From the NCBI RefSeq assembly GCF_044324785.1, contig NZ_CP172127.1: a stretch of DNA of 64,000 nucleotides; one strand, 5' to 3'. Under the pieces are notes generated by a model. The model ran no database searches. It worked only from the letters and a program-made list of their open reading frames with translations, and was not told where the DNA came from. Below, in pieces: positions 2,352 through 63,661 of the stretch; the stretch's first letter is position 1, and every line of letters starts with the position of its first letter. The DNA is from Escherichia coli (GTDB lineage Bacteria; Pseudomonadota; Gammaproteobacteria; Enterobacterales; Enterobacteriaceae). The position numbers and the translations under genes were made by a program.

Positions 2352-3503
2352 ATGAATGTGGTTGATTTATACTCAGGGGTAGGTGGTTTAAGCTTGGGAG
2401 CATCACGGGCAGGCTTTAACTTGGTTGGTGCCGTTGAGTTGGATAAGCATGCAATATTTTCCCATGCTCTTAATTTCCCAAATTCAACACATTTACATAA
2501 AGATGTTAGCAAACTTTCTGCTCATGATATTCTAACAGCTTGTAATGTTAGTAATATTGATTGTGTCATCGGTGGACCACCTTGTCAGGGATTTAGTACA
2601 ATTGGTAAAGGGATGGCTAATGACGTCAGAAATGAATTGTATATTCATTTTTTTAGGTTGGTGAGCGAGTTATCACCTGTTTGTTTCTTGGCAGAGAATG
2701 TTCCTGGGATAATGAATGAAAAATATGATGCAGTTAGAGAAAAAGCATTCTCATTAGTAAAAGACCGATATGTAATATTGAGCCCAATAAAAGTGAATGC
2801 GTCTAATTATGGAGCTCCTACAACTAGAACTAGGATTTTTTTTATCGGATTCAAAAAGGAATTAGCTAATTGTTTAAAAGAATCTGATTTCTTTCCTGTG
2901 CAAGATATTGAGCAAACCTTAGTTAAAGATGCTTTATACGGTATTCCTCGTGTTATAAGAAAAGAATGGCAGCAAGAGGAACAAGGCTGGCGTGAAGTTA
3001 AGATGGATAGGCAAGGATATTTTTTTGATAGACTTTGGAGTAATGTTCCGAATAATGTTGGTGATCCGGAATCTTTAGAAAAATTAAAAAAAGGGTTGGT
3101 CTCCGGTTTCTTGGGAACAATACATACAGATGAGGTTATTAATAGATATAAAAAACTCTCTTTTGGCGAAACTGATAAAATTTCACGATCTCAGAGGTTA
3201 AATCCAAATGGTTTCTGTCCGACGCTAAGGGCTGGAACTGGCAGCGATAAGGGCAGTTATCAAGCAGTTAGGCCGATCCATCCAACGCAGGCTAGAGTTA
3301 TTACTCCACGTGAGGCTGCTCGATTACAAGGTTTTCCTGATTGGTTTAGGTTTCACCCTACTAAGTGGCATAGTTTCAGGCAAATCGGTAATAGCGTTAG
3401 CCCATTAGTAGCTGAAGCTATGCTATTACCGTTATATAAATTATGTCAGTTTTCTAAAGAAGAACTTTCGAATACCACGGAATTACTTTGTAATACTCAA
3501 TAA
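2352..3503 (+). CDS. DNA (cytosine-5)-methyltransferase (383 aa)
   Basis: Canonical C5-MTase motifs in order: motif I DLYSGVGG, motif IV GGPPCQGFS, motif VI FLAENVPG, motif VIII-like TTRTRIFFIG, motif X IGNSVSP. AT-rich relative to flanking phage genes. Starts 51 bp after the gpA stop. Confidence 0.85.
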   Translation: MNVVDLYSGVGGLSLGASRAGFNLVGAVELDKHAIFSHALNFPNSTHLHKDVSKLSAHDILTACNVSNIDCVIGGPPCQGFSTIGKGMANDVRNELYIHFFRLVSELSPVCFLAENVPGIMNEKYDAVREKAFSLVKDRYVILSPIKVNASNYGAPTTRTRIFFIGFKKELANCLKESDFFPVQDIEQTLVKDALYGIPRVIRKEWQQEEQGWREVKMDRQGYFFDRLWSNVPNNVGDPESLEKLKKGLVSGFLGTIHTDEVINRYKKLSFGETDKISRSQRLNPNGFCPTLRAGTGSDKGSYQAVRPIHPTQARVITPREAARLQGFPDWFRFHPTKWHSFRQIGNSVSPLVAEAMLLPLYKLCQFSKEELSNTTELLCNTQ

Positions 3504-3915
3504 AGTTTTTAAGGTTACTATTAGCCTCGGCTTCATCATCTCCAATGTAAAAGCCGAGGTCGTTGGTAATTTCTTCATGGTCTTTTGTAGGAAGTCGTTC
3601 CTCAATAAAGATTCTCTCACGTAAAGACATCGTGGGAACACTAATGTTTTTGACGGTGCCCCAGTCTCCAGAATAAAAGGGCCAAAAATTAATTCGAGAA
3701 TTTTGAAGGAAGCTATCTAATTGCATATCACTGTTTTCGAGAACAATGGCAGTAAAGGTAAGCATTTGCTGACCATCTTTGTAAATAAAATTACATAAAG
3801 GATGGATCATTATATCTGGTCTACCTGTTAATCCAATACTTATGGCACGTTGAGCTGCTTTTATTAAAAGGTGTGGGTACCTTTTAAAAGTGACATCATC
3901 AACAGTTAGATTCAC
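3454..3915 (-). CDS. Hypothetical protein (153 aa), third gene of GHKL-ATPase operon
   Basis: GTG start overlaps the stop of the upstream 177-aa ORF by 4 nt (GTGA). No recognisable motif. 3' end overlaps the MTase 3' end convergently by 50 bp. Confidence 0.55.
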   Translation of the reverse strand: MNLTVDDVTFKRYPHLLIKAAQRAISIGLTGRPDIMIHPLCNFIYKDGQQMLTFTAIVLENSDMQLDSFLQNSRINFWPFYSGDWGTVKNISVPTMSLRERIFIEERLPTKDHEEITNDLGFYIGDDEAEANSNLKNFIEYYKVIPWYSKVLL

Positions 3916-9304: not shown

Positions 9305-10159
9305 ATGGCAAAAAAAGTCTCAAAATTCTTTCGTATCGGCGTTGAGGGTGACACCTGTGACGGGCGTGTCATCAGTGCGCAGGATATTCAGGAAATGGCC
9401 GAAACCTTTGACCCGCGTGTCTATGGTTGCCGCATTAACCTGGAACATCTGCGCGGCATCCTGCCTGACGGCATTTTTAAACGTTATGGCGATGTGGCCG
9501 AACTGAAGGCCGAAAAGATTGACGATGATTCGGCGCTGAAAGGCAAATGGGCGCTGTTTGCGAAAATCACCCCGACCGATGACCTTATCGCGATGAACAA
9601 GGCCGCGCAGAAGGTCTACACCTCAATGGAAATTCAGCCGAACTTTGCCAACACCGGCAAATGTTATCTGGTGGGGCTGGCCGTCACCGATGACCCGGCA
9701 AGCCTCGGCACGGAATACCTGGAATTCTGCCGCACGGCAAAACACAACCCTCTGAACCGCTTCAAATTAAGCCCTGAAAACCTGATTTCAGTGGCAACGC
9801 CTGTTGAGCTGGAATTTGAAGACCTGCCTGAAACCGTGTTCACCGCCCTGACCGAAAAGGTGAAGTCCATTTTTGGCCGCAAACAGGCCAGCGATGATGC
9901 CCGTCTGAATGACGTGCATGAAGCGGTGACCGCTGTTGCTGAACATGTGCAGGAAAAACTGAGCGCCACTGAGCAGCGCCTCGCGGAGATGGAAACCGCC
10001 TTTTCCGCACTTAAGCAGGAGGTGACTGACAGGGCGGATGAAACCAGCCAGGCATTCACCCGCCTGAAAAACAGTCTCGACCACACCGAAAGTCTGACCC
10101 AGCAGCGCCGCAGCAAGGCCACCGGCGGTGGCGGTGACGCCCTGATGACGAACTGCTGA
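9305..10159 (+). CDS. O: Capsid scaffolding protein gpO (284 aa)
   Basis: ORF track starts at 9239. Trimmed to MAKKVSKFF, which matches the P2 gpO start and length. Confidence 0.9.
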   Translation: MAKKVSKFFRIGVEGDTCDGRVISAQDIQEMAETFDPRVYGCRINLEHLRGILPDGIFKRYGDVAELKAEKIDDDSALKGKWALFAKITPTDDLIAMNKAAQKVYTSMEIQPNFANTGKCYLVGLAVTDDPASLGTEYLEFCRTAKHNPLNRFKLSPENLISVATPVELEFEDLPETVFTALTEKVKSIFGRKQASDDARLNDVHEAVTAVAEHVQEKLSATEQRLAEMETAFSALKQEVTDRADETSQAFTRLKNSLDHTESLTQQRRSKATGGGGDALMTNC

Positions 10160-14629: not shown

Positions 14630-15059
14630 TGCCGTCACGGTGCTGAAAACCAGTCCCGAGATGTTGCGGATATTCGTGGATAACGGGAGTATTGCCTCCA
14701 CGCTGGCGACGTCGTTGTCATTCGAAAAGCGTTACACGCTCAATGTGATTGTGACCGACTTTACCGGTGATTTTGACCTGCTCATCGTGCCGGTGCTGGC
14801 GTGGCTGCGGGAAAATCAGCCCGACATCATGACCACCGACGAAGGTCAGAAAAAAGGTTTCACGTTTTATGCAGACATCAACAATGACAGCAGCTTTGAT
14901 ATCAGCATCAGCCTGATGCTGACCGAGCGCACGCTGGTCAGTGAGGTGGACGGCGCGCTGCATGTGAAGAATATCCCGGAACCCACGCCGCCGGAGCCGG
15001 CCACCCGCCCGATGGAGCTTTATATCAATGGCGAACTGGTGAGCAAGTGGGATGAATGA
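14592..15059 (+). CDS. R: Tail completion protein gpR (155 aa)
   Basis: Position and size. Confidence 0.85.
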   Translation: MLKPDSLRRALTDAVTVLKTSPEMLRIFVDNGSIASTLATSLSFEKRYTLNVIVTDFTGDFDLLIVPVLAWLRENQPDIMTTDEGQKKGFTFYADINNDSSFDISISLMLTERTLVSEVDGALHVKNIPEPTPPEPATRPMELYINGELVSKWDE

Positions 15060-15504
15060 GTTTAAGCGTTTTGAAGACCGGCTGACCGGACTGACTGAGT
15101 CGCTGTCACCGTCAGGGCGTCGGCGACTGAGCGCCGAACTGGCGAAACGTCTGCGGCAGAGTCAGCAGCGTCGGGTGATGGCACAGAAAGCCCCGGATGG
15201 CACACCCTATGCGCCACGCCAGCAGCAGAGCGCCAGAAAAAAGACCGGTCGTGTTAAGCGAAAAATGTTTGCGAAACTTATCACCAGTCGTTTTTTGCAT
15301 ATCCGCGCCAGCCCGGAACAGGCATCAATGGAATTTTACGGCGGGAAGTCGCCGAAAATCGCCAGTGTGCATCAGTTCGGTCTGTCGGAAGAAACCCGGA
15401 AAGACGGTAAGAAAATTGATTATCCGGCGCGTCCTCTGCTCGGCTTTACCGGTGAGGATGTGCAGATGATTGAAGAGATTATCCTGGCTCACCTTGAGCG
15501 TTAG
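15052..15504 (+). CDS. S: Tail completion protein gpS (150 aa)
   Basis: Position and size. Overlaps the R stop. Confidence 0.85.
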   Translation: MNEFKRFEDRLTGLTESLSPSGRRRLSAELAKRLRQSQQRRVMAQKAPDGTPYAPRQQQSARKKTGRVKRKMFAKLITSRFLHIRASPEQASMEFYGGKSPKIASVHQFGLSEETRKDGKKIDYPARPLLGFTGEDVQMIEEIILAHLER

Positions 15505-16131
15505 TTTTATCCAGGCAGAGGCTGATGCGCAATTAAACATTGAGCGGCCATGCTGGTCGCTCAATGTTTAGAGGTTTATGAGTGATTTTTATTTGATGCT
15601 TTGTATTCTAAAACCTTCTTATTGGCGTAAAAGAATTTTGTATATGACAGGAATATAACCAGACCTGAAGTGAAATAGACGAGGGATAGTATTAATAATG
15701 CTTTTTTGTGACTGTTATTATCTTTAATCTCCTGGCTTAACCATTCGGAGTCCTCCTCGTTTAGCTGTAAGAGCTTATTGCAGGCGATCTCAGGAAGTGT
15801 GTCTTTTATAAATACGTTTTGCAGTCTCTTGCAATCGGCAAGGCTATAAGTTTTATTAAATTCAACTGCTTTATTTTTGAAGGATAAAAGAACTTTGTCA
15901 CTATAAACATAGTACATCATGTTTTTATATGGTATGCCTATGGCATCCCTTACTATAACGGATTGTACGTTGTGTATGTAACATGCGAGGAGAATGTAAA
16001 AAATACTGGCCAGAATTACAATTATTGTTTTAATTATGTGTAGACTGGCCCCCTGAATCTCCAGACAACCAATATCACTTAAATAAGTGATAGTCTTAAT
16101 ACTAGTTTTTAGACTAGTCATTGGAGAGCAG

Positions 16132-16497
16132 ATGATTGATGTCTTAGGACCGGAGAAACGCAGACGGCGTACTACACAGGAAAAGATCGCTATTGTTCAG
16201 CAGAGTTTTGAACCGGGAATGACGGTCTCCCTTGTTGCCCGGCAACACGGTGTGGCAGCCAGCCAGTTATTTCTCTGGCGCAAGCAATACCAGGAGGGAA
16301 GTCTTACTGCTGTGGCCGCAGGAGAGCAGGTCGTTCCTGCCTCTGAACTTGCTGCTGCCATGAAGCAGATTAAAGAACTCCAGCGCCTGCTCGGCAAAAA
16401 AACGATGGAAAATGAACTCCTTAAAGAAGCCGTTGAATACGGGCGTGCAAAAAAGTGGATAGCGCACGCGCCCTTATTGCCCGGGGATGGGGAGTAA
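16132..16497 (+). CDS. insC: IS2 transposase OrfA, InsC (121 aa)
   Basis: Start [24 protein letters not shown] with upstream GGAGAG Shine-Dalgarno. HTH-containing N-terminus. The GTG at 16087 in the ORF track is rejected as the start. Confidence 0.9.
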
Positions 16498-17360
16498 GCT
16501 TAGTCAGCCGTTGTCTCCGGGTGTCGCGTGCGCAGTTGCACGTAATTCTCAGACGAACCGATGACTGGAAAGATGGTCGCCGCAGCCGTCACTCAGATGA
16601 TACGGATGTGCTTCTCCGTATACACCATGTTATCGGAGAGCTGCCCACGTATGGTTATCGTCGGGTATGGGCGCTGCTTCGCAGACAGGCCGAACTTGAT
16701 GGTATGCCTGCGATCAATGCCAAACGTGTTTACCGGATCATGCGCCAGAATGCGCTGTTGCTTGAGCGAAAAACCGCTGTACCGCCATCGAAACGGGCAC
16801 ATACTGGCAAAGTGGCCGTGAAAGAAAGCAATCAACGATGGTGCTCTGACGGGTTCGAGTTCCGCTGTGATAACGGAGAAAAACTGCGAGTCACGTTCGC
16901 GCTGGACTGCTGTGACCGTGAGGCACTGCACTGGGCAGTCACTACGGGCGGCTTCGACAGTGAAACAGTACAGGACGTAATGCTGGGAGCGGTGGAACGC
17001 CGCTTCGGCAACGAGCTTCCGGCGTCTCCAGTAGAGTGGCTGACGGATAATGGTTCATGCTACCGGGCTAATGAAACACGGCAGTTTGCCCGGATGTTGG
17101 GGCTTGAACCGAAGAACACGGCGGTGCGGAGTCCGGAGAGTAACGGCATAGCAGAGAGCTTCGTGAAAACGATAAAGCGTGACTACATCAGTATCATGCC
17201 TAAACCAGACGGGTTAACGGCAGCAAAGAACCTTGCAGAGGCGTTCGAGCATTATAACGAATGGCATCCGCATAGTGCACTGGGTTATCGCTCGCCACGG
17301 GAATATCTGCGGCAGCAGGCCAGTAATGGGTTAAGTGATAACAGGTGTCTGGAAATATAG
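16455..17360 (+). CDS. insD: IS2 transposase OrfB, InsD (301 aa, DDE catalytic domain)
   Basis: Overlaps insC in the -1 frame, the typical IS3-family frameshift arrangement. Translation [19 protein letters not shown].... Confidence 0.9.
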
Positions 17361-17780
17361 GGGCAAATCCAATGTGTGGTGGTTTTGTTATGTCACCCCA
17401 GATGCGAGTAAGAAAAAAATACGATGTTTTTAGTTTTCCATCAATCAGTCCCTGCTGTATCATTCTCACATTTTCAATGCCTGATACATTGATTCCGTTA
17501 ATTATTTTAAATAGTTGAATGTCGCGCCACTCGCGGTCAAGTCTTTTTAATTTTTTGTCTGAATATCCAAAATTGAAATAATGTGCAATAAGCCTCATAA
17601 GGTTACTTTTACCAAAGCTAAAAAATGCTAATACTGCAAAGCTACAAAGGAAAAAAACGATTAGCCCCCACACATTAGTCACATTATAGCTGACCATTAC
17701 GCTCTCCTTGAATGTTGTCTGGTAGTTCTACAAATGAATCCAGATAGCATAACTTTTATATATTGTGCAATCTCACATGC

Positions 17781-18416
17781 ATGAACACTCTCGCAAATAT
17801 TCAGGAACTCGCGCGTGCACTGCGCAACATGATCCGCACCGGTATTATCGTCGAAACCGACCTTAACGCCGGTCGCTGCCGTGTGCAGACCGGCGGCATG
17901 TGCACCGACTGGCTTCAGTGGCTGACCCATCGCGCCGGACGTTCGCGCACATGGTGGGCACCTTCCGTGGGGGAACAGGTGCTGATTCTGGCCGTGGGCG
18001 GTGAACTCGACACGGCGTTCGTTCTGCCGGGGATTTATTCCGGCGATAACCCCGCGCCGTCTGCGTCGGCGGATGCCCTGCATATCCGTTTCCCTGACGG
18101 GGCGGTGATTGAGTATGAACCTGAAACCAGTGCGCTCACGGTAAGCGGAGTTAAAACGGCCAGCGTGATGGCTTCTGATTCTGTTACTGCCACGGTGCCG
18201 GTGGTTATGGTGAAAGCATCAACCCGCATCACCCTGGACACACCGGAAGTGGTCTGCACCAACAAACTGACTACCGGCACGCTGGAAGTGCAGAAGGGCG
18301 GGACGATGCGCGGCAACATTGAACACACCGGCGGTGAACTCTCATCAAACGGTAAGGTACTGCATACCCATAAACACCCCGGCGACAGCGGCGGCACAAC
18401 CGGGAGTCCTTTATGA
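17781..18416 (+). CDS. V: Baseplate spike/assembly protein gpV (211 aa)
   Basis: ORF track starts at 17763. Trimmed to MNTLANIQELARALRN. Confidence 0.9.
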   Translation: MNTLANIQELARALRNMIRTGIIVETDLNAGRCRVQTGGMCTDWLQWLTHRAGRSRTWWAPSVGEQVLILAVGGELDTAFVLPGIYSGDNPAPSASADALHIRFPDGAVIEYEPETSALTVSGVKTASVMASDSVTATVPVVMVKASTRITLDTPEVVCTNKLTTGTLEVQKGGTMRGNIEHTGGELSSNGKVLHTHKHPGDSGGTTGSPL

Positions 18417-61513: not shown

Positions 61514-61609
61514 GAAAAGCCAGCTTTTTTCTCATTACTCCATCCTTAGATTATACTAAATTTTGTATAAATCAAATGCGCAGTTTGAACCTGCGCATTT
61601 GATGTTTTA

Positions 61610-63193
61610 TCACACCTCGTACTCCATCTCGCCATCCTTACGCAGCGGAATAATTTGCACCTTCTGCACGCGATGGCTTTCCACCTGCAACGTTTTAAGC
61701 AAATAATCTCCCACCTGCACTTCTTCGCCAGGTTTTGGAATGCGCTGCAAATATTCCATCAATAGCCCGGCAATGGTGTGATATTCACGTTTCTCGTCCA
61801 GCGGCAGCGGCACATATTGCACCAGATCCTCCAGCGGCATATGACCATTCGCCGTCCAGGAACCGTCCGCATTCTTCTGAATATCATGGCGGGCGTCGAT
61901 CTCTTCCACTTCGTTCGGTAAGTTACCGGCAATGGTTTCTGTGACATCACTTAATGTCACAATCCCTTCCACCGAGCCAAACTCATCCACCACAAAAGCA
62001 AAGTGTGTGCGGGCATTACGGAACTGCTCCAGGGCAGGTAACAACGGCAAGGTTTCCGGGAACACCAGCGGCTGGCGAATCAACACCCGCAGGTTGAGCG
62101 GTTCGCCGCGCAGAGACTGTTGTAGCAGGTCGATAACGTGAACAACACCGAGCAAATCTTCCGCGTCGTCACCGTCGGTAACCACCAGCCGCGTATGCTG
62201 ATTTCGCTCCAGCAACTGGCGGATTTCCTCTTCCGGCGCGTTGAGATCGATATGCTCAATATCGTGGCGCGACGTCATAATGCTGCTGACGGTACGCTGG
62301 TTAAGATTAAGGACCCGCTCAATCATCCGCCGCTCCTGCGGATTAAAGATCTGCTGGTTACCATGATCCACCAGCATGGACGCGGTTTCGGCGTCCAGTT
62401 CCGCATCTTCTTTTTGCCCGCTAAGCAGGCGCATTACCGCTTCGGTAGTCCGCTGGCGCAGCGTCTGGTTAGCGGAAAGAAAACGTCGCCGGTTAAAGAT
62501 AGCCAACTGATTGAGCGCCTCGATCATCACCGAGAAACCAATGGCAGCGTACAGGTAGCCTTTCGGAATGACGAAGCCGAAACCTTCCGCCACCAGGCTA
62601 AAGCCAATCATCAACAGGAAGCTTAAGCAGAGAATAACGATGGTCGGGTGACTGTTAACAAATTGCGTTAACGGCTTGCTGGCCATCAACATCAGGCTAA
62701 TAGCGATAACCACGGCGGCCATCATGACCAGTAAATGGTCGACCATCCCGACGGCGGTAATCACCGAGTCGAGTGAGAAGATGGCGTCCAGTACCACAAT
62801 TTGTGTCACCACCCCCCAGAACTTCGCACCTTTGCGTTGTGTGGGGTTATTGCTGTCTTTCCCCTCCAGCCGTTCGTTCAGCTCCATCGTGGCTTTGAAC
62901 AGCAGGAAGAAACCACCAAACAGCATGATTAAGTCGCGGGCGCTAAAGGTAAACGAGCGGAAGCTGAACAGCGGTTGAGTCAGGGTGACCAGCCAGGAGA
63001 TAGACGCCAGCAGTAACAGGCGCATTAACATCGCCAGCAGCAGCCCGGTAACCCGTGCGCGGTCGCGCTGCTTCGGCGGTAGTTTTTCGGCGAGGATGGC
63101 AATAAAGACCAGGTTATCAATGCCGAGGACCAGTTCGATCACAATCAGCGTGATTAACCCGGCCCAGATAGACGGATCGGCAATCCATTCCAT
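61610..63193 (-). CDS. yegH: TerC-family membrane protein with CBS/CorC domains, YegH (527 aa)
   Basis: Start trimmed to [12 protein letters not shown]. TerC-like transmembrane N-terminus and CBS pair in the C-terminal half. Confidence 0.85.
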
Positions 63194-63661
63194 AGTAAGT
63201 ACAAAACCTATTCGTTGTATGACAAATGTCACAATTCGATCATGGATAAATCGGGGCAAAAATGCAATGTTGCAGCACTATTTATCTCATATTATTTGAG
63301 GGTAATAACCTCACATTATCCCTGAATTAAAAGTGGTAATAATAAAACATTATTTAAGAAATATCGCATGTGGAGACACAGTATTAAATATTGTCAACCT
63401 AAAGAAACTCCTAAAAAACATATTGAATGACACTTAATATAATTCTTAAAAATAGCCAATTGCCGAATTGTTACCTTGCCTGCTATTCCGTTAGCTGTAA
63501 CACTTCCTCCTGCATTATTGGAGAGCCAATATTCAATTACCATAATGTCACCTTATATTCGGAAGTTAATTTCCGCAATAACCCTTTCTCATCAACGATT
63601 GTATGCAGAGAGGGTTTGAAAAATTGAGCTAAATCAGTGTATTGGTAGCTAAAAAGCCAGG

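Follow-up and report, generated by a model that had tools for sequence, protein, structure and literature searches.

Genes and features at the S-V junction

The stretch of DNA analysed here, 64 kb in length and referred to below as the window, is a P2 prophage as judged by its sequence, with 98% identity to phage P2 (AF063097) across gene S, the hairpin studied here and orf30. Gene S (15052-15504, + strand), which encodes the tail completion protein, is the last gene of the late O operon of P2 (O-N-M-L-X-Y-K-lysABC-R-S), and its transcript would enter the hairpin (15534-15570, assigned to neither strand) after a spacer of 29 nt (15505-15533, + strand) that is specific to the orf30 module. The 3' part of orf30 (15576-16041, - strand; approximately residues 108-261 of Orf30) is convergent with S and has its stop codon 5 nt from the hairpin. 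It is followed by an IS2 element of about 1331 bp (16042-17371, + strand), inserted in orf30 with the target duplication ATGTG and with borders good to 1-2 nt, and then by the 5' part of orf30 (17372-17697, - strand; residues 1 to approximately 109). The intergenic region between orf30 and V (17698-17780, + strand) carries the P2 pV late promoter, for which an activator site is annotated in P2. The right end of the orf30 module lies before the ATG of V at 17781, where homology to other P2-like phages resumes. The transcription start of the V operon is annotated in P2 (AF063097, position 10308; window 17781) on the A of this ATG, giving a leaderless mRNA, and no Shine-Dalgarno-like sequence precedes V in any of the S-V gap types described below.

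The accessory gene had been described in a preliminary description of this DNA as a cargo membrane gene. What had gone unrecognised is its identity as P2 orf30, its disruption by IS2 and the existing annotation of the hairpin next to it. orf30 is a non-essential, AT-rich gene of 261 aa with very few homologues; Orf30 had no match in Pfam or PADLOC and matched only a PHROG family of unknown function. The open reading frame at 15576-16121 (- strand, 181 aa) is a chimera consisting of the C-terminal part of Orf30 and 27 codons from the end of IS2. The S-V distance in the window, 2276 bp, is the sum of the 940 bp found in P2, the 1331 bp of IS2 and the 5-bp duplication. The orf30::IS2 junction was absent among the complete RefSeq E. 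coli genomes searched. Exactly at the 3' edge of the hairpin the GC content falls from about 47% to about 30%.

The hairpin corresponds base for base, over 37 identical nt, to positions 9397..9433 of P2, which are labelled "putative rho-independent terminator for O operon" in the P2 record (AF063097 / NC_001895). It is already known, its annotation in the P2 reference genome going back decades. Both its sequence and its site between S and orf30 are those of the P2 O-operon terminator; the hairpin is no different, and it is the neighbouring orf30, broken by IS2, that differs here. It is an ordinary hairpin except that it has no usual U-run. No 3'-end mapping and no treatment of the hairpin were found in the papers searched on orf30, the P2 terminator and P2 transcriptomes, and the label "terminator" remains putative.

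Sequence and folding of the hairpin

The hairpin consists of a 5' arm (15534-15550), a loop TGC (15551-15553) and a 3' arm (15554-15570). The perfect 12-bp inverted repeat noticed previously, AAACATTGAGCG (15535-15546) and CGCTCAATGTTT (15558-15569), is present exactly as given, but its length was understated: the perfect arms comprise 13 nt (15534-15546 and 15558-15570) and are continued by the pair G15547·T15557, two C-G pairs and an A-T pair up to the 3-nt loop, making 17 pairs in total with 94% complementarity. In the RNA, a core of nine pairs (seven G-C, one A-U and one G·U; GAGCGGCCA-UGC-UGGUCGCUC) is flanked by an A/U-rich base, UAAACAUU / AAUGUUUA. The hairpin is strong, as had been claimed, with a predicted folding energy of -25.8 kcal/mol (z = -7.2) for RNA of the + strand and -21.3 kcal/mol (z = -6.5) for RNA of the - strand, and none of 200 shuffled sequences folded as well. 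Its placement between convergent 3' ends also holds: the S stop codon (15502-15504) is 29 nt away on one side and the stop codon of the minus-strand ORF (15576-15578) 5 nt away on the other.

No close inverted repeat in the 64-kb window is longer. The window has just two loci where perfect arms of at least 12 nt enclose a loop of 3-20 nt, and when 64-kb sequences were simulated with a first-order Markov model, 5% of them contained repeats of this kind. Next in length among the close inverted repeats is one at 61571-61603, whose 16-nt arms contain a single mismatch and which has a loop of 1 nt and flanks rich in T. It is located just 3' of the ORF at 61610-63259 on the minus strand and probably represents an ordinary terminator. 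When the hairpin was searched on both strands against Rfam 15 at a permissive threshold, the only family matched was mir-9256, with 30 bits against a gathering score of 80, which is a generic hairpin-shaped match.

The S-V slot in P2-like phages

Three variable regions have been described in P2, i.e., TO, Z/fun and orf30 (PMC3091744), and the S-V (orf30) slot is already recognised as a variable region of P2-like phages. The S-V gap was compared here in 87 loci, namely those of P2, of six P2-like phages from GenBank and of 80 IMG/VR contigs located by means of gpS. A 66-bp gap without cargo (type A) was present in 49 loci, the orf30 module of 938 or 940 bp (type B) in 28, a 1040-bp module (type C) in two and a 1256-bp module (type D) in seven; one locus (L008) stops short of V, so that no gap could be taken from it. 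In every comparison homology broke off 0-2 nt past the S stop codon and returned at the V ATG, and in 55 relatives without orf30 it ended at window position 15506. The hairpin is therefore part of the orf30 module instead of the S backbone, with 29 nt of the module between it and the border. The comparison with cargo-less P2-like phages, which the preliminary description had proposed, gave the same picture: their S-V gap is 66 bp and this hairpin is missing from it.

The 71-nt stretch formed by spacer and hairpin was found only in 21 phage records, all of them carrying orf30. Of 5426 complete E. coli genomes, 369 contain the hairpin, each in one or two copies and invariably in the chromosome, and in the four carrier genomes examined it lies in P2-type prophages. 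As far as these comparisons of sequence go, the hairpin arrived with the orf30 module, and it was never seen without orf30. It was also considered as a REP/BIME-like repeat or the end of a mobile element, and rejected as such, because the window has a single copy, E. coli genomes have no more than one or two, and phage records have it only together with orf30.

Reverse-oriented cargo is also present in the slot in types C and D and in the 186-like phage vB_EcoM-613R3, and in each of the three a strong hairpin of its own separates the convergent stop codons. That of type D is a canonical A-tract/U-tract bidirectional terminator, AAAAGGCCAGTTATTGGCCTTTT. For fun(Z), the other reverse-oriented accessory gene of P2, the annotated terminator abuts the stop codon. 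The recurrence of independently acquired hairpins at this convergent junction argues for a transcriptional role. The Enterobacter homologue of Orf30 (39% identity) has a terminator-like hairpin unrelated to the present one. The organisation of the S-V slot is clear from the survey: the intergenic region is exchanged as a whole, every reverse-oriented cargo coming with its own 3' hairpin and every module with its own pV promoter. In vB_EcoM-613R3 (L099, 2957-3046), where the reverse-oriented cargo is 'YjcF', a tRNA T-arm-like fragment, GGGTTCGATTCCC, adjoins the stop codon. No tRNA gene was found there by ARAGORN, and the fragment may be the remnant of a tRNA-linked attachment site.

The cargo-less phages have a different GC hairpin, GCCGCCGG-TATGAC-CCGGCGGC, which also lacks a U-run and lies inside the pV promoter region. 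It has a stem of 8-9 pairs, is located at 3486-3507 in phage L-413C (L007) and is the same in 49 cargo-less loci. Within the gap of 66-68 bp it sits between the TGT...ACA activator site and the leaderless start of V. A GC hairpin of unrelated sequence occurs at the same place in PSP3 (L098, approximately 2970-2996). With the structure kept and the sequence not, these hairpins may mean that the pV promoter incorporates a terminator or attenuator of the O operon.

The arrangement resembles that of phage 'moron' cassettes, which, as reported by Hendrix, Juhala and co-workers, consist of a promoter, a gene and a terminator inserted between phage genes. As in the morons and in the P2 variable regions, an AT-rich, non-essential, reverse-oriented gene occupies a variable slot with its own 3' hairpin. 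Unlike a moron, however, the orf30 module also provides pV, the promoter from which the essential operon downstream is transcribed, and it replaces the entire S-V intergenic region instead of being inserted into it.

Conservation of the hairpin and its spacer

Among 32 distinct type-B sequences, the 29-nt spacer has one segregating site, and the spacer together with the lower stem has three in 55 positions. This is lower than the 28% of third-codon positions that segregate in S (binomial P = 2.5e-5) and lower than the 21.6% found in orf30 (P = 1e-3). Even where the orf30 alleles in the same slot share only 80-87% amino-acid identity, the spacer is 100% and the hairpin 95-100% identical. The variation within the hairpin is concentrated in the apical 11 nt.

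The survey of about 100 loci and E. coli ATCC 8739 yielded 11 hairpin haplotypes, among which, at this low divergence, there were no compensatory changes from one Watson-Crick pair to another. Transitions that keep a G·U pair numbered five for RNA of the + strand against two for RNA of the - strand, or six against two when the fixed G·T is included, and the difference was not significant. A few loci have variants that break the stem (a 2-nt deletion, T>G and T>C), which shows that an intact stem is not an absolute requirement. Taken as comparative evidence, the conservation moderately supports a function, and the low diversity could partly be that of a young, recombining module and not the result of selection.

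Comparison with intrinsic terminators

The preliminary description had noted that no U-run flanks the hairpin on either strand, and this was borne out. With a re-implemented d'Aubenton-Carafa score the tails scored 0.4-1.1, whichever stem boundary was assumed, and a consensus terminator scan called nothing at the hairpin. The tails past the full stem are GAGGUUUAUG (+ strand) and AUUGCGCAUC (- strand), while past the nine-pair core the sequence is that of the 3' half of the A/U-rich base given above. The canonical terminator at the same site in the type D module has tail scores of 3.7-4.4, and the other four terminators annotated in P2 all have U-runs. Since the U-run is missing here, unlike in those four, the annotation in the P2 record depends on the stem alone. 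Of the features of an intrinsic terminator, the stable GC-rich stem-loop is thus present and the U-rich tract of about 7-9 nt directly 3' of the stem is not, and classic intrinsic termination by this hairpin is doubtful.

The palindrome can nevertheless be read as laid out like a bidirectional terminator whose A and U tracts have degenerated. It shares with canonical bidirectional terminators such as that of type D the position between convergent stop codons, the GC-rich core and the A/U-rich base. The base differs, however, in having only 4 U in 8 and a score of about 0.8-0.9 as compared with 3.7-4.4, and the stem, with its 17 pairs, is unusually long.

Possible roles of the hairpin

Based on these results, the hairpin is probably a non-canonical terminator or insulator where S and orf30 meet, which would also define stable 3' ends. 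Nascent RNA of either strand would fold into the GC-rich nine-pair core extended by the A/U-rich base, and the folded RNA would pause or halt RNA polymerase and so mark a defined 3' end. Late transcription would in this way be kept from passing antisense through orf30, and transcription of orf30 from passing antisense into S, R and the lysis genes. Because there is no U-run, classic intrinsic termination is probably weak, and collision of polymerases or another factor would more likely complete termination; the hairpin could also shield the resulting 3' ends from exonucleases. The bidirectional terminator suggested in the preliminary description is upheld to this extent, i.e., by the annotation in P2 and by the hairpins of all reverse-cargo modules, but it is weakened by the missing U-run, which makes classic intrinsic termination doubtful and leaves the terminator putative.

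A precedent could be provided by the collision-type terminators (Ju et al. 2019, cited in Wang et al., bioRxiv 10.1101/2022.10.23.513370). According to the latter, stem-loops unlike intrinsic terminators are needed at convergent E. coli genes to position collisions of polymerases and bring about bidirectional termination. The present hairpin is likewise a stem-loop unlike an intrinsic terminator in a convergent gene pair; it lies between the stops at 15504 and 15576 and folds on both strands. On the other hand, S belongs to the late lytic genes, whereas expression of orf30 presumably takes place in the prophage, so that strong simultaneous transcription of the two may be rare. According to another report (PMC4824070), the ribosome represses terminators that lie a few bases past a stop codon. 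Such masking favours an action on the S transcript, with 29 nt between stop codon and hairpin, over a co-translational action on the orf30 transcript, with 5 nt. The need for a terminator of the O operon is, however, not obvious, because transcripts continuing from S into V would be sense transcripts and would do no harm.

The main rival explanation, which corresponds to the RNA-stability element of the preliminary description, is that the hairpin is a stabiliser or processing site of RNA 3' ends and not a terminator, polymerase being stopped elsewhere, e.g., by Rho acting on untranslated antisense RNA. The hairpin could then block 3'-5' exonucleases in the manner of the REP-type hairpins of 3' untranslated regions, or be cut by RNase III as in the retroregulation by lambda sib, and in either case it would set the half-life of the S-end mRNA, the orf30 mRNA or both. 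The high stability of the stem on both strands and the lack of a U-run would suit such a role, as would the distance of 5 nt from the orf30 stop codon, where, going by the same report (PMC4824070), shielding by the ribosome hinders termination during transcription and not protection afterwards. The conservation of the spacer and lower stem would also agree with it, but the same conservation and the same position are predicted for a terminator. Typical substrates of RNase III have helices of approximately 20 pairs. The stem of 17 pairs falls short of this, and Rfam offered nothing beyond the sub-threshold match to mir-9256. A role of this kind is possible, although it is considered clearly less probable than the non-canonical terminator or insulator.

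Two further explanations are both poorly supported. It is unlikely that the palindrome is functionless and has simply been inherited within a module that is young and nearly clonal. The lack of covariation among the haplotypes, the natural variants that break the stem and an overall divergence among carriers of just 2-5% would all be expected if this were the case, but a palindrome of such length, the longest of its kind in 64 kb, is improbable by chance. In addition, variation in the spacer and lower stem is far below that in the third positions of S or in the adjacent orf30, whose products diverge to 80% amino-acid identity at the same loci, and a hairpin occurs at the equivalent position in every reverse-cargo module examined. 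Still more improbable is the notion that the hairpin acts at the DNA level only, as a recombination site, mobile-element end or cruciform left from or used in the delivery of orf30, with no role in RNA. The hairpin does always travel with orf30, and the drop in GC content coincides with its 3' edge. However, as the homology breaks at the S stop codon, 29 nt upstream, the hairpin is ruled out as the insertion junction; the right border of the module is the ATG of V and has no related repeat; and the hairpin occurs once per prophage, with no copy elsewhere in the window or, in the phage records and carrier genomes examined, outside P2 prophages. The earlier suggestion of a remnant of the insertion event is not supported, on these same points. 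Moreover, no recombinase or integron-type gene lies alongside, the only nearby transposase being that of the later IS2, and both the other cargo modules of the slot and the Enterobacter homologue of orf30 have hairpins unrelated to this one.

As an extension of the non-canonical terminator or insulator favoured here, it may tentatively be speculated that the hairpin is a dedicated insulator without a U-run, working by collision or as a roadblock, and that selection has favoured it for separating an accessory gene expressed from the prophage from a strong convergent late operon, and that such structures are a general way of ending the O operon in Peduoviridae. If this were true, the general end of the O operon would include the unrelated GC hairpins in the 66-68-bp gaps of the cargo-less P2-like and PSP3-like phages. 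The hairpin in itself matters little, and the S/orf30 junction could be a convenient natural example in which to examine termination of a non-canonical or collision type at the boundary between a phage gene and an accessory gene.

Divergence of orf30 alleles

In four of the IMG/VR and phage loci compared (L089, L090, L092 and L093, with orf30 at 2001-2786 in each), the orf30 alleles diverge down to 80% amino-acid identity. Their nucleotide identity is 81-95% and patchy along the gene, whereas both flanking intergenic regions are 95-100% identical. This suggests fast or diversifying evolution, or exchange of alleles, of the accessory membrane protein.
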